Source of the DNA: Candidatus Uhrbacteria bacterium
Lineage (GTDB): Bacteria > Patescibacteriota > Patescibacteriia > UBA9934
DNA length: 64,000 nt
Direction: 5' to 3'
Assembly: GCA_963822405.1 (NCBI GenBank)
Contig: CAWGHH010000001.1
Coordinates: forward strand, 151,296 to 215,295
In this document: positions 31,119 to 47,213 of the stretch, piece by piece
Layout of the letters: the number at the start of each line of letters is the position of its first letter
Numbering within the stretch: the first letter of the stretch is position 1
Notes under the pieces: model-generated
Told to the model about the DNA's origin: nothing
Database searches by the model: none
What the model saw: only the letters and a program-made list of their open reading frames with translations
Made by a program: the position numbers and the translations under genes

Positions 31119-31161
31119 ATTATAGCAAAAAAACGCCATTTTGTCAATGTTTTGTGGCTAA
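31119..31161 (-). promoter_or_regulatory. Near-consensus promoter of cassette 1 (TTGACA-N17-TGCTATAAT plus conserved upstream TTAGCCNCAAAACA)
   Basis: Minus strand reads TTAGCCACAAAACATTGACAAAATGGCGTTTTTTTGCTATAAT. Confidence 0.6.
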
Positions 31162-31337
31162 AGTGAGCCAAAAAGAGGGAAATGGGGATAAATTTTGACG
31201 AGGTGTCAGGAAATATGGTGGAATGTATGTACCGGGTAGGTTACCCACACGGGCTTATCCCAGGTGATACAAAAGCAAACTCCCCTTTATTGGTGGGTTT
31301 GTATTTGTTTTATGCCGAGTAAGGACTACTCCCCATT

Positions 31338-31410
31338 GGGCCCGTGCGGTAATTGGTAACCACCCCGGATTATCACCTGGGAGTTACGGGTTCAAATCCC
31401 GTCGGGTCCA
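31338..31410 (+). tRNA. tRNA-like cloverleaf (73 nt, anticodon TAT), atypical: C37, one mismatch each in the D and anticodon stems; possible pseudo- or paralogous tRNA
   Basis: Hand-folded: GGGCCCG acceptor with one G.U, U8, A14, G18G19, A21, U33, T54T55C56, T-stem ACGGG/CCCGT, discriminator A; nested in an outer stem GCCGAGT(31314)...ACTCGGC-A-CCA(31425). Confidence 0.45.
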
Positions 31411-31485
31411 CATAACTCGGCACCAACCACTCCGTCCGCAAGGGCGGAGTTTGGTTTCTGTCGAAATACGGGATATTATTCGTGC

Positions 31486-32007
31486 ATGAAAATCTATCCT
31501 CTTGAATCTTGGATGAGCCCCAAGCTCACAACAAAAAATTCGCCAGTTCATGGTGGCGGAGTTTTTGCTGTTGAACCGATTAAGCAGGGCGAGGTGTTAG
31601 TTCGATGGGGCGGAAAGGTGTACTCGACCAAACAGGTCGTTGATGGCGAGACGACCAGTCAAACAGCCTGTCAGATTGATGACGATTTATATATTGCTAG
31701 TCCGCCAGGAACAGAGCTTGTCGGTTCCGACCTCATGAATCATTCCTGTGATCCGAATACGTGGATGGATGACGAAGTGACAATTTCGGCTAAAAGGAAC
31801 ATCGCGACTGGTGAAGAAATCACCGCTGACTATGCGCTTTGGGTTGCTTATCCGGGGTATGAAACTATAGCAGATTGTCATTGCGGTTCTTCATTGTGTC
31901 GTCGTCGAGTAACAGGGGATGATTGGAAGATTCTGGAGCTTCAAGAACGGTATCAAGGCCATTTTCCACCTTACCTCCAAAAACGTATCGAACAATTATC
32001 CGTATAA
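31486..32007 (+). CDS. SET-domain protein (putative protein-lysine methyltransferase)
   Basis: SET motifs NHSCDPN and EEITADY; C-terminal Cys cluster CHCGSSLCRRR (post-SET-like). Confidence 0.75.
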   Translation: MKIYPLESWMSPKLTTKNSPVHGGGVFAVEPIKQGEVLVRWGGKVYSTKQVVDGETTSQTACQIDDDLYIASPPGTELVGSDLMNHSCDPNTWMDDEVTISAKRNIATGEEITADYALWVAYPGYETIADCHCGSSLCRRRVTGDDWKILELQERYQGHFPPYLQKRIEQLSV

Positions 32008-32057
32008 AATGAAGAACCGCACCGCGAGGAGCGCCGTGTGGCTCTTCGGGGTGCGGT
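32008..32057. terminator. Conserved GC-rich hairpin terminator, copy 2 (cassette 3' flank)
   Basis: aaaatgaagaaccgcaccgcgaggagcgccgtgtggctcttcggggtgcggt; begins immediately after the SET gene stop. Confidence 0.6.
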
Positions 32058-32065
32058 TGCGCCTG

Positions 32066-44116: not shown

Positions 44117-45206
44117 ATGACTTCCGGTGCGCGTTTTCTACAAAGGCGAGCAATTGCTTGCGGAAGCGTTCGGTGGAAAAAGTTTCGGCGTGAGCGCGGA
44201 TTTTTGCTGGCTCAAACTTATTGGCGTCGAAGTTGTTAATGGTTTCGACCAGTGCGTCGACGGTTTGCTCGACAATGAACGTTCCCGTTACGCCCTCGAC
44301 TACCGTTTCTGTTGCTCCACCTTTCTTATAGGCAATAACCGGCCGACCTGCCGCCATAGCTTCTACAACTGTTAGGCCAAAATCTTCCTCTTGGGGGTTT
44401 ATGAAGGCAATTGCGTCGGCGAAAAGGCGCGCACGCTCGTCATCGGATACTCGACCAAGAAATTCAACGGTTGGTCCGGCCATTTGCCTCAAGGTTTCTT
44501 CTGCTGGACCAGAGCCAAACACTTTAAGCGGAAGACCAAGCTTGGTGAACGCCTCGACGACCAAATCAAATCGTTTATATGACACTAACCGACCACCGGC
44601 CAAGAAGTATGTTTTTGGGTTGATCGAAATATTAAACTTAGCAACATCAACTGGCGGATGGATAACCTCGCTTTCTCGTCTATAATACTTTTTGATGCGG
44701 TTCTGCACCGTTTTCGAGTTGGCAATGAACAAGTCCGTTCTGTCGGCCGCAGCTTTGTCCCACAACCGGAGAAGCGAAAGAACCGGCGGTAGAACCCACT
44801 TAACAATTTTTGGTGCGCGAAGTTCCTCGACATAGCTTTGAGCATCGCTCCAGAGGTAGCGGGTTGGCGTATGGCAGTATGAAATGTGTACGCAGTCAGT
44901 TGGGGTGACTATACCTTTTGCAAACGCACTAGCCGAAGATATGACTACGTCGAATTCTGACAAATCGTAGCTTTCAGTCGCCGATGGCATGAGGGGGAGT
45001 AAGTATCGGAAAAACCGTTTACCCATTGGTACATGCTGTAAAAATGATGGGCGAATGTCCTTATGCCCAAAATCAGCCTTCATCGCTTCTTTGTCATAGT
45101 AAAGCGTGTAGGTTGGGGCTTCAGGGAATATTGCCTGAAGAGCTGAAAGAACTCTCTCAGCGCCTCCGTGCTGGATTAGATGGTCATGTACAAGAGCAAC
45201 ACGCAT
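44100..45206 (-). CDS. glycosyltransferase family 4
   Basis: GT4 signature sequence. Confidence 0.8.
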   Translation of the reverse strand: MRVALVHDHLIQHGGAERVLSALQAIFPEAPTYTLYYDKEAMKADFGHKDIRPSFLQHVPMGKRFFRYLLPLMPSATESYDLSEFDVVISSASAFAKGIVTPTDCVHISYCHTPTRYLWSDAQSYVEELRAPKIVKWVLPPVLSLLRLWDKAAADRTDLFIANSKTVQNRIKKYYRRESEVIHPPVDVAKFNISINPKTYFLAGGRLVSYKRFDLVVEAFTKLGLPLKVFGSGPAEETLRQMAGPTVEFLGRVSDDERARLFADAIAFINPQEEDFGLTVVEAMAAGRPVIAYKKGGATETVVEGVTGTFIVEQTVDALVETINNFDANKFEPAKIRAHAETFSTERFRKQLLAFVENAHRKSYEDRH

Positions 45207-45215
45207 AAGTTTTTC

Positions 45216-46616
45216 CTAATATGCCCCTTTTCTGAAAATAACGGCCACTGGTGTTTTTATGAGGATAATGAGATCCAGGAACGGACTCCAGTTCTCAATA
45301 TAGTACATATCTAGGCGGACTTCGTCTTCAAAGTCAAGGTTTGCCCGGCCGCTAATTTGGGATAAGCCTGTAATTCCTGGTTTAATTGTTAATACGCGTC
45401 GTTCATTTGGTTGATACCTAGCTACTTCTTCTGGCAAATGTGGGCGAGGACCGACTAGACTCATTGAACCGGCGAGTACTGCATAAAACTGTGGTATCTC
45501 GTCAAGGCTCCACTTTCTGATGAATCGACCAACCCGAGTCACTCGAGGGTCGTCGGCGAGCTTGAAAAGCGGTGTTCCTTCACGTTCATTGCCGTACTTT
45601 TTAATGAAGGCTGGATCGAACCGTAGTTTGTGTGCCTCCTTAACCATCGAGCGGAACTTCATGAAGGGGAACGGCTGGCCTCGCATGCCGACCCGTTTGA
45701 TGGTGAAGAAAATCGGCCCTGGGTTTTCTATGAAGATAGCGAGTGCAATCAGGAATTGAAGGGGGAGCGAGACGATGATGAGAACTAGGGATATGATGAT
45801 ATCAAACGAACGTTTGTAGATTGCGCCCCAGCCATCAAGTGGAGTTTTCGGCACTTCGATCACCGGTTTTCCGCCAAAAGTAAAAACTATAGGACGCAGT
45901 GTGCTACCGGGAAATAAGTCGGCCGTGTACAGAAAAGACGCATGTTCAACATCTGAAAAAGTTTTAATAGCAGTGATCTCTGATCGTTCGGCGTCAGTAT
46001 TTGCCAGAAGAATAAGATCCAGTCTGTTTTCGTTTTTTAACCGCTTTAGTCTTTCTGCTGTTTCTCCACTGAAGTGCGCGGTGTGATAGCTAGTAACGTA
46101 GCCAAGGGTTGGATTTTCTTTGAAGTAGGCCACCAGTTCATGGGCATCTTTTGTCTTTCCAATAACGGCCACGTACTGAACTCCAAAGCCAAACTTTCTC
46201 AAGGTGCGTTGAATAATTCGAACGGCCAAGCGCTCGATTAGCAGGAAAACCACGGAGAATAACCAGCCAGCCAGCACAATAAAACGAGAGTCGAACAGTT
46301 CGCGCGAGAAGAAGGCGATAGCGAGGACTACGGCAATGCTAGCGGAAGACGCGACCACTACACGAACCGACTCGCTCGGTATGCTTCGCGGGCGAATGGC
46401 GTAAAGACCAGAGAGTGAGAAGACGATCACGTAAATGGCGGCGATAGGCAGGACGAGCGCCAGGAACTCGCTAAAAGTCAGCTCAAAGGTTACTGGTCTG
46501 AACGCCGTAAATACAGCCGCGAAACGTAAAGAATACGCCGCTATTCCTGCCAGGAGCAGAGTTAGATAGTCAAGCGGAACAAACAAGGCCGCGAACGCAA
46601 GATCAGCGCGTTTCAT
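45216..46616 (-). CDS. undecaprenyl-phosphate sugar phosphotransferase (WbaP/CpsE-type bacterial sugar transferase)
   Basis: Multiple N-terminal TM helices; C-terminal PGITGLSQISGRANLDFEDEVRLDMYYIENWS. Confidence 0.85.
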   Translation of the reverse strand: MKRADLAFAALFVPLDYLTLLLAGIAAYSLRFAAVFTAFRPVTFELTFSEFLALVLPIAAIYVIVFSLSGLYAIRPRSIPSESVRVVVASSASIAVVLAIAFFSRELFDSRFIVLAGWLFSVVFLLIERLAVRIIQRTLRKFGFGVQYVAVIGKTKDAHELVAYFKENPTLGYVTSYHTAHFSGETAERLKRLKNENRLDLILLANTDAERSEITAIKTFSDVEHASFLYTADLFPGSTLRPIVFTFGGKPVIEVPKTPLDGWGAIYKRSFDIIISLVLIIVSLPLQFLIALAIFIENPGPIFFTIKRVGMRGQPFPFMKFRSMVKEAHKLRFDPAFIKKYGNEREGTPLFKLADDPRVTRVGRFIRKWSLDEIPQFYAVLAGSMSLVGPRPHLPEEVARYQPNERRVLTIKPGITGLSQISGRANLDFEDEVRLDMYYIENWSPFLDLIILIKTPVAVIFRKGAY

Positions 46617-46663
46617 AGTTGAGCTTATTTTAACATGAAAAACCGCCCTTGCGGACGGTTTTT

Positions 46664-47178
46664 CTGCTTGGAGAACTAGTAAGCCGAATTCTGTCGAGCC
46701 TCTACGTGCTTTCGGACGTAAAGATTCGTGACGATCATCTCTCTAGTTCTGACATTGCTGTCAGACTCATGCGAGCTACCTAATTTGCTCTTGCACCACG
46801 ATGGGTTTGCCGCACCCGTGCGTTACCGCGCGGGTGAGAGGAGTGGGCTCCTCACTTTTCACTGTACTTCACCATAGCTTGCGCCGCAGGTGAGTATCAT
46901 AGTCTCTGTTGCGTCTTTCTTGTGGTTTCCCACAAGTCTTGACCTTTGAGATTCTTGCGTTTCCCAAAGACTTTCCCTGGGCTTCCTGAGGCCTGTGGGG
47001 GACAGCGCGAAGCCGCCATCCAGTCCCTCACCGGCATCACTTTTTCCCGGTTGCTGTTAGCAACACCGTTTCTCATTCATGCATTGCTACATGAAGGGTG
47101 TTCGGACTTTCCTCCCCCTAACGTAGCTCCGAGCGTTAGCAAGGGGCGAAGTGGGGGCGATCATCTTGTTTTCCAAGC
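46664..47178 (-). ncRNA. rnpB: RNase P RNA, bacterial type
   Basis: P4 5' strand GGAGGAAAGUCCGAAC (rc of 47101-47123); P4 3' strand GACAGAAUUCGGCUUA (rc of 46679-46696), pairing with the bulged U; P1 GCUUGGA/UCCAAGC; GGUAACGC and GGGUGCGG blocks; terminator 46638-46663. Confidence 0.7.
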
Positions 47179-47184
47179 GAGGCA

Positions 47185-47213
47185 AGTATAGCAAAAATAG
47201 GCGAATATGTAAA
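47185..47213 (-). promoter_or_regulatory. rnpB promoter, TTTACA-N17-TGCTATACT
   Basis: Minus strand reads TTTACATATTCGCCTATTTTTGCTATACT; predicted start coincides with the P1 5' end. Confidence 0.55.

Follow-up and report, generated by a model that had tools for sequence, protein, structure and literature searches.

In E. coli and other bacteria, extended -10 promoters recognized by sigma-70 carry a TG dinucleotide at positions -15 and -14 ahead of a TAnnnT hexamer, and in E. coli this TGn element often compensates for a poor -35 hexamer. Across bacteria, the promoter spacer has been described as ending with an AT-tract followed by a G-rich Ex element (TG or TRTG), and the proximal AT-tract promotes transcription (PMC12641261). 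Spacer sequence affects promoter strength without known specific contacts (PMC2613000), and the TRTGn motif, or '-16 region', is very common in Bacillota and is reported to stabilize the open complex (Voskuil and Chambliss, as cited in PMC2613000 and PMC12641261). The literature searched yielded no study of promoters in Patescibacteria. The DNA analyzed here is a stretch of 64,000 nucleotides (nt), called the window below, from an uncultured bacterium of the candidate phyla radiation (CPR), a Candidatus Uhrbacteria bacterium (contig CAWGHH010000001.1, positions 151,296 to 215,295). The closest named relatives of its isoleucyl-tRNA synthetase and of a sugar transferase belong to the Patescibacteria group and Candidatus Uhrbacteria. 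An exact look-up of the synthetase gave no match, and a sugar transferase identical to that of the window is recorded from a 366-kb contig and from run ERR12037365. Four minus-strand sites in it are very probably near-consensus extended -10 promoters for the primary sigma factor (sigma-70/SigA type). They would head insulated, terminator-closed units, namely the gene for RNase P RNA (rnpB), a structured orphan RNA with mini open reading frames (ORFs) and two single-gene cassettes (Table 1).

The four sites are present as an earlier note on this DNA had given them, with TTGACA (three sites) or TTTACA (one site) as the -35 hexamer, a 17-nt spacer and TATA(A/C)T as the -10 hexamer. All four -35 hexamers are thus TTGACA-like at a distance within the usual 16-18 bp, and all four -10 hexamers (TATAAT at site 1, TATACT at sites 2, 3 and 4) fit TAnnnT. 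At each site the spacer ends with TTTTTGC, so that TGC directly precedes the -10 hexamer and TG occupies -15/-14. The shared block that the note had described therefore stands, in a shorter form. The common T-run is T5 and not the T6 that had been claimed, because site 4 has only five T residues. The note had also counted the sites as four, and sites 1 and 2 lie in the two copies of a 69-nt direct repeat (31107-31175 and 32436-32504, 81% identity), which leaves three independent promoters and one copy. The 13-mer TTTTTGCTATAMT occurs five times in the window when up to one mismatch is allowed, compared with 0.17 expected occurrences, and the full 29-nt pattern with up to two mismatches finds exactly these four sites, compared with 0.00 expected (100 shuffles). 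They are also the top four of the 21 sigma-70-like matches listed for positions 29000-48500, where the only other match with TG before the -10 hexamer is a weak one (9/12, 32691-32719). Downstream of the cassette and orphan-unit promoters, at a distance of 25-75 nt, come a GGAGG ribosome-binding site and ATG, and upstream of these promoters is the terminator of the preceding gene. All four units close with a terminator of their own.

These sites share with characterized extended -10 promoters the TG at -15/-14, the TAnnnT hexamer, a T-rich tract, a 17-bp spacer and a consensus-like -35 hexamer, and at rnpB a start about 7 nt after the -10 hexamer, as in those promoters, would fit. They differ in that TG is combined with a near-perfect -35 hexamer, in the C at -13 that is invariant among the four sites, and in their CPR host. 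The resemblance to the TRTGn element of B. subtilis and other Gram-positive bacteria extends to T at -17, T at -15 and G at -14, but position -16 is T and not a purine at all four sites (TTTTGC), and none of them is a TRTGn promoter. True TGTGc variants do exist in the lineage (22820-22825 and orthologs).

The promoter with the clearest downstream product is that of rnpB. In E. coli, rnpB (M1 RNA) is a stand-alone gene for a stable RNA, with its start at the mature 5' end, where helix P1 begins, and a terminator hairpin just beyond the 3' end. The gene in the window appears to be organized in the same way, even though RNase P RNA is not reported there by Rfam at the gathering level. With a relaxed threshold, RF00010 matches 46664-47031 with 83.9 bits (gathering score 100; E = 1.4e-25). 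This match covers only the 3' two-thirds of the RNA, the alignment of the 5' domain is visibly forced, and the 5' end is misplaced by 147 nt. The real 5' domain is found further upstream and comprises GCUUGGAAAACAAG (P1), GAUGAUCG (P2), a P3 hairpin and GAGGAAAGUCC (conserved region CR-I, near 47113). In both the minimum free energy and the centroid folds, GCUUGGA (47178-47172) pairs with UCCAAGC at the 3' end (bases 1-7 with 507-513), and the fold of 47178-46664 has a z score of -4.0. The conserved core is present, as judged from CR-I, the terminal P1/P2 pairing and ACAGAA...GGCUUA near the 3' end. The earlier note had placed the predicted start exactly at the 5' end of P1, and this proved correct because G47178, the first paired base of P1, is the seventh base after the -10 hexamer. 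The same spacing holds in one related locus (L125), and in another (L126) the seventh base falls within 2 nt of P1. In both relatives, the P1 pairing is again followed by the same CCGUCCGCAAGGGCGG-U-run terminator. All this fits transcription that begins about 7 nt after the -10 hexamer, at P1, as the predicted position.

The RNase P RNA itself is unusually long, with 513 nt in the window and about 483 and 532 nt in relatives, where it lies at approximately 9481-9960 of L125 and 7781-8310 of L126 and is found also in L128 and L129. Unlike the E. coli RNA, it falls short of the gathering threshold of the Rfam type A model, and about 150 nt of additional sequence separate its CR-I from the remaining core and include a second copy of GGAAAGUC (near 46975). 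Diverged RNase P RNAs of CPR bacteria, often below threshold and in need of manual refolding, have already been reported (PMC8172020), and the RNA in the window is consistent with these.

Evidence that the block before the -10 hexamer matters comes from an alignment of the rnpB promoter with its orthologs in L125, L126, L129 and L128, whose neighboring sugar transferases are 88%, 82%, 65% and 61% identical to that of the window. The footprint is limited to these five orthologs because a metagenome scan with the rnpB P1/P2 pattern gave one locus, identical to L126. In the -35 hexamer, TTTAC is invariant and the sixth position is A or T. The first 10 spacer bases contain no invariant column, and six of the seven positions of the TTT(T/C)TGC that follows are invariant. 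In the -10 hexamer, T, A and the final T are invariant, and the discriminator varies. Because the T-run/TGC block is kept while the adjoining 10 spacer bases vary freely, the block is, as judged from this alignment, under selection and functional rather than a leftover of shared ancestry. It also recurs at orthologous or nearby promoters in related genomes (L121, L122/L123, L125 and L026). There are four near or exact copies in L121 and a TTTATGC variant in L125. The L026 sequence TTGACAAAATGGCGATTTTTTGCTATACT equals site 1 at 27 of 29 positions, in a genome whose isoleucyl-tRNA synthetase (IleRS) is only 73% identical. Promoters orthologous to site 3, with nearly the same spacer, are present in L121, L122/L123 and L125.

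If the four sites are indeed extended -10 promoters for the primary sigma factor, each would consist of a -35 hexamer, an optimal 17-bp spacer, a T-tract at about -16 to -20, T-15 G-14 C-13 and TATAMT. By analogy with characterized systems, TG would be read by sigma region 3.0, the AT-tract just upstream would aid open-complex formation through DNA shape, and together they would allow strong initiation, probably without additional factors, about 7 nt past the -10 hexamer. It is by such analogy that we infer the sigma and polymerase contacts, the promoter strength and the lack of regulation. Strong transcription of the three units other than rnpB is a reasonable inference because their promoters match the consensus so closely. 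The similarity among the sites would then have two sources, one being selection toward the consensus, to which the conservation pattern of the rnpB orthologs points, and the other the copying of whole modules, as for sites 1 and 2 and for site 3 and a further promoter at 5052-5080.

Several considerations weigh against this explanation. The starts, strength and constitutive behavior of these promoters are predictions from sequence. The T-run seems dispensable in this lineage, since the promoter at 49248-49276 has an A-run before TG, and the same is suggested by the strong-looking tRNA-Leu promoter and its orthologs, where an A-run and TGn precede the -10 hexamer. The promoter at the position of site 3 in L122 (TTTTTCAGC) has no TG. 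Moreover, parts of the spacers outside the T-run are conserved beyond what neutral drift would suggest, namely GAAGTYRGA in site 3, its orthologs and 5052-5080, and AAATGGCG, which sites 1 and 2 share with the distant L026. Such conservation could reflect an operator or the copying of modules, so that expression need not be purely constitutive.

The earlier note had suggested that the T-run and TGC form a lineage-specific signature of strong promoters. In a more specific version of this idea, the block would be read by a specialized sigma or polymerase feature of CPR bacteria and would mark the most highly expressed stable-RNA and ribosomal units. A scan of species-representative genomes with TTKACA-N10-TTTTTGCTATAMT yielded at least 120 loci, with 121 occurrences among the matches listed, and the statements that follow on taxa and downstream genes refer to these listed matches. 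As labeled, about 81 of 120 are from Bacillota, the phylum rich in TRTGn, 17 are from Patescibacteria and 22 are from others (Campylobacterota, Alpha- and Gammaproteobacteria, Omnitrophota, Treponema, Armatimonadetes/Armatimonadota, Brocadiaceae, Anaerolineales, Victivallales and Bacteroidota), and the identical 29-nt pattern stands at plausible promoter positions across phyla other than Patescibacteria. The idea that the block marks stable-RNA or highly expressed units was borne out in part. Sixteen of the 121 occurrences lie 17-100 nt upstream of a tRNA gene on the same strand and one more probably does (its tRNA is cut by the end of the locus), and one of this set, in L056, heads a unit of tRNA and 16S genes, an rrn operon. 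Since tRNA-led units make up only a few percent of bacterial transcription units, the fraction of about 14%, which includes several occurrences orthologous to each other, is an enrichment. On the other side, more than 80% of the matches are followed by ordinary protein-coding genes that have a ribosome-binding site and ATG, and the block is absent at all five tRNA genes in the window, with the tRNA-Leu orthologs using an A-run. As for lineage specificity, the block is kept in the rnpB orthologs and recurs in related genomes, and Patescibacteria contribute their 17 matches despite small genomes. Nevertheless, the abundance of the exact pattern in Bacillota and its spread over many phyla speak against a lineage-specific signature with a specialized CPR readout, which is very unlikely. 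Because an AT-tract with TG or TRTG has been described across bacteria (PMC12641261), the promoter architecture is known and general, and this lineage uses it in a very clean form.

A different account is that the shared sequence stems mainly from the copying of a promoter-bearing module, through duplication, gene conversion or cassette exchange, which would make the sites paralogous modules. This is a serious possibility that falls just short of being probable. Sites 1 and 2 share their 69 nt well beyond the promoter elements and have matching terminator modules besides. The tandem cassettes of L121 have identical promoter modules, whose spacer reads aaacgtcat and that of the window cassettes aaaKggcgt, as homogenization predicts. 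Because one spacer version is shared within each genome, it is suggested that cassette promoters were copied or homogenized within each. Site 3 and 5052-5080 share the -35 hexamer and 9 of the next 10 spacer bases and nothing downstream, the L129 ortholog of 49248-49276 resembles the cassette promoters in its spacer and has the TAGCCACAAA box upstream as well, and the L026 module is nearly identical to site 1 in a genome with an IleRS of only 73% identity. What module copying does not explain is rnpB, whose orthologs keep the functional blocks only while the remaining spacer drifts. Nor was there any sign of a transposase, an integrase or repeat ends, and viral contigs scanned with the cassette-type and the site-3-type promoter-spacer patterns gave no match. 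Module copying is complementary to the extended -10 explanation, not an alternative to it. The conserved spacer halves could also be operators bound by a repressor, which would make the promoters tightly regulated. The candidate binding sites are short inverted repeats in which the -35 hexamer takes part, TGAC-N4-GTCA at site 3 and its orthologs and, at sites 1 and 2 and in L026, GCCN...NGGC, which surrounds the -35 hexamer. In keeping with this, five related promoters contain TGACagaaGTCA or a variant of it, and the difference between GCCA...TGGC (site 1 and L026) and GCCC...GGGC (site 2) is a two-sided change that keeps the pairing. This is a single compensatory pair in three sequences, however; the arms measure no more than 4-5 bp, and the -35 hexamer by itself makes up half of each palindrome. 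No such repeat is present at rnpB, no candidate regulator was identified, and module copying explains the conservation equally well, all of which makes operators improbable. Least likely of all is that an intrinsic terminator and the promoter overlap and that the T-run serves as the U-tract, kept for termination of the upstream gene. Several cross-taxon matches (L018, L034, L008 and L077) have a clear hairpin across the -35 hexamer followed by the T-run, and the terminator of each L121 cassette abuts the next -35 hexamer. This candidate role was rejected because the window sites have separate, stronger terminators upstream (32507-32521, 37059-37086 and the GCUCCGCG...CGCGGAGC hairpin before 47213) and because the rnpB orthologs keep the T-run without a spacer hairpin; potential stems inside the window spacers amount to only 4-5 bp.

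Taken with the rnpB footprint, the extended -10 sites provide a sequence-based promoter model for the lineage, consisting of TTGACA or TTTACA, 17 bp, an AT-tract, TGC and TATAMT. Such a model can be used to annotate transcription units, to correct the 5' ends of RNase P RNAs truncated by Rfam and to design expression parts. The recognition code of the primary sigma factor in this lineage looks like that of Bacillota, which is unsurprising but useful.

Table 1. Promoters, transcripts and open reading frames of the window discussed in the text (window coordinates; aa, amino acids)
Feature	Coordinates	Strand	Details
Site 1, cassette 1 promoter	31119-31147	-	TTGACAaaatggcgttTTTTTGCTATAAT; TTGACA-aaatggcgtt-TTTTTGC-TATAAT; spacer aaatggcgttTTTTTGC; 12/12 to consensus; within 69-nt repeat
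Site 2, cassette 2 promoter	32448-32476	-	TTGACAaaagggcgttTTTTTGCTATACT; TTGACA-aaagggcgtt-TTTTTGC-TATACT; spacer aaagggcgttTTTTTGC; within 69-nt repeat
Site 3, orphan-unit promoter	36987-37015	-	TTGACAgaagtcagatTTTTTGCTATACT; TTGACA-gaagtcagat-TTTTTGC-TATACT; spacer gaagtcagatTTTTTGC
Site 4, rnpB promoter	47185-47213	-	TTTACAtattcgcctaTTTTTGCTATACT; TTTACA-tattcgccta-TTTTTGC-TATACT
RNase P RNA	46666-47178	-	diverged type A; predicted +1 is the first base of P1
rnpB intrinsic terminator	46637-46658	-	CCGUCCGCAAGGGCGG, then U-run; starts 7 nt past the 3' strand of P1
Cassette 1 ORF	30048-31085	-	345 aa, very acidic
Cassette 1 terminator module	30004-30047	.	duplicate of the module in cassette 2; directly adjoins the IleRS stop codon
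Cassette 2 ORF	32066-32425	-	119 aa, N-terminal membrane anchor
Cassette 2 terminator module	32016-32057	.	ACCGCACC...GGTGCGGT hairpin, then UCUUCAUUUU, minus strand
Orphan transcript	36557-36980	-	about 415 nt, 55% G+C; terminator stem 36565-36588 and T-run
Orphan-unit 13-aa ORF	36867-36908	-	ribosome-binding site upstream
Orphan-unit 31-nt repeat	36641-36671, 36762-36792	-	two copies; ribosome-binding site, ATG, start MTN(R/C)IRD
Additional promoter related to site 3	5052-5080	-	TTGACAgaagttagaatttatggTACGAT; TTGACA-gaagttagaatttatgg-TACGAT (relaxed scan)
Additional sister promoter	49248-49276	-	TTGACAaaagggtcaaaaagTGCTATTAT; TTGACA-aaagggtcaaaaagTGC-TATTAT; A-run replaces T-run

The promoter type itself is less interesting than the cassettes and than the RNase P RNA, which is long and diverged. 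The closest parallel to the cassettes is found in phage morons, which are transcribed independently from a promoter of their own up to a terminator of their own (PMC3594210). Like morons, each cassette has a single ORF with sequence-level signals for its own strong-type promoter and terminator and lies between conserved genes, and cassette content varies between close relatives. In contrast to morons, the cassettes are not in a phage or prophage, as judged from the lack of PHROG and viral-contig matches, and what changes is the ORF, between flanks that are conserved and used again. The neighboring genes encode IleRS, a tRNA, a SET-domain protein, an AAA_33 kinase-like protein, RuvA and FemAB. 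Neither cassette protein received an assignment from Pfam, NCBIfam or PHROGs.

The variation is seen best against L121, whose IleRS is 92% identical and where the same interval holds a site-3-type unit followed by two cassettes (A and B) in tandem on one strand. Cassette 2 and L121 cassette B are orthologs, with 86% nucleotide identity from the -35 hexamer to ATG and 80% in the terminator, compared with 56% in the coding sequence, where the proteins are 30% identical; a homolog search with the cassette 2 protein returned the query itself only. For the same pair of genomes, nucleotide identity is 80% in the IleRS coding sequence and 73% in that of AAA_33. Cassette 1 and L121 cassette A are 77% identical from the -35 hexamer to ATG and 82% in the terminator and have a common ACCGTTTGGAGG leader and a common TAG-ACCGCACCC terminator start, but the 345-aa ORF of cassette 1 is unrelated to the 74-aa ORF between the homologous flanks in L121.

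A tentative and rather doubtful interpretation of this pattern is that the IleRS/tRNA-Ile(UAU) neighborhood is a hot spot for plug-in cassettes, with conserved promoter, 5' untranslated region and terminator flanks around replaced or fast-evolving ORFs. The strong promoter with its 5' untranslated region and the terminator would then serve as reusable, perhaps recombinogenic, flanks, and the ORF between them would be replaced outright, as in cassette 1, or evolve very fast, as in cassette 2. If so, the cassettes would form a counterpart of morons outside phages and would keep small proteins that change rapidly, perhaps ones at the surface or in contact with a host, highly expressed in an episymbiotic bacterium poor in regulators. 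It is in these conserved expression signals around hypervariable ORFs that something new might be found. The window has two genes for tRNA-Ile with the rare anticodon UAU (31338-31411 and 58657-58733, both on the plus strand). The former, beside IleRS and in the middle of the variable cassette region, scores only 40.5 bits, has no encoded CCA and is 92% identical to its counterpart beside IleRS in L121 (10880-10953).

The orphan unit behind site 3 has no Rfam match, and its RNA folds with a z score of -3.6. In relatives, the promoter is almost unchanged and the body of the unit is strongly diverged. Mini-ORFs comparable to those in the window (MCRIRDPTPNL... and MVRNRGPP...) occur just before the terminator in L122 (about 10640-10690) and L121 (about 11850-11900), and the mini-ORFs could be small peptides or parts of an attenuator-like element. 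Nearby, the divergent region between a gene for a GT4 glycosyltransferase and a 77-aa gene contains a long AT-rich inverted repeat (37411-37529) whose arms include CTTTTTCAACTTTACAGC. It drew only spurious microRNA-like matches in Rfam, and the sequence of one arm recurs immediately behind the stop codon of the AAA_33 gene, on the upstream side of cassette 2 (32544-32570).

Two further promoters, both from a relaxed scan, were not included in the earlier note. The spacer of 5052-5080 is a near copy of that of site 3. This promoter faces at least 1 kb (4000-5050, minus strand) without a convincing ORF or terminator, and Rfam gave no match in this ORF-poor region. Next to it, window positions 1-4000 have 57-66% G+C, compared with 45-50% elsewhere and 49% overall, and few long ORFs. 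The promoter at 49248-49276, which has a perfect -35 hexamer and TGC, lies upstream of small membrane-protein genes. Its orthologs (L125 7245-7279, L126 4844-4878, L128 7044-7078 and L129 6703-6737) bring the comparison to five genomes with the window; an A-run precedes TGC in four of them, and a T-run with a cassette-like spacer does so in L129. At this promoter and at sites 1 and 2, a TAGCC(A/T) box is located 10-25 nt upstream of the -35 hexamer. TTAGCYA is not enriched in the window (14 matches compared with 10.3 expected), and 5 of 11 strong-looking promoters have a TAGCYA-like box in the 60 nt ahead of them, compared with a 16% background, which is a post hoc and weak association.

In the cross-taxon scan, two loci from Clostridia-related metagenome-assembled genomes (L016, about 2100-2160, and L084, about 1530-1590, both minus strand) carry the exact pattern followed within about 15-25 nt by a shared sequence that contains GAGGAAAGTCCG/GTGGAAAGTCTG. 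Both had been considered as rnpB genes because of GAGGAAAGTCC-like motifs just after the promoter and were dropped, since Rfam gave no confirmation and the motifs are too close to +1. The GAGGAAAGTCCG/GTGGAAAGTCTG sequence, which Rfam does not recognize at the gathering level in these two loci, may be an undescribed small RNA or leader.

Extended -10 elements also occur at 37544-37561 (plus strand, TGATATAAT) and 62938-62955 (minus strand, TGATATACT), ahead of long ORFs that encode the GT4 glycosyltransferase (at 37559) and a 442-aa protein (at 62940). Because these elements lie 6 nt before ATG, it is suggested that the two mRNAs are leaderless. Finally, a leader of about 70 nt, GACGGTCGGCAMACCATACCCCATCAYACGGGRGCCGATTACCTGCAYCTAAAAGTGCAAGGAGGAA, is repeated at approximately 3560-3630 and 3050-3125 (minus strand) before two small ORFs, one of which encodes a 73-aa Cys-rich protein that resembles a zinc ribbon. 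This repeated leader is another case of expression signals reused around small genes.

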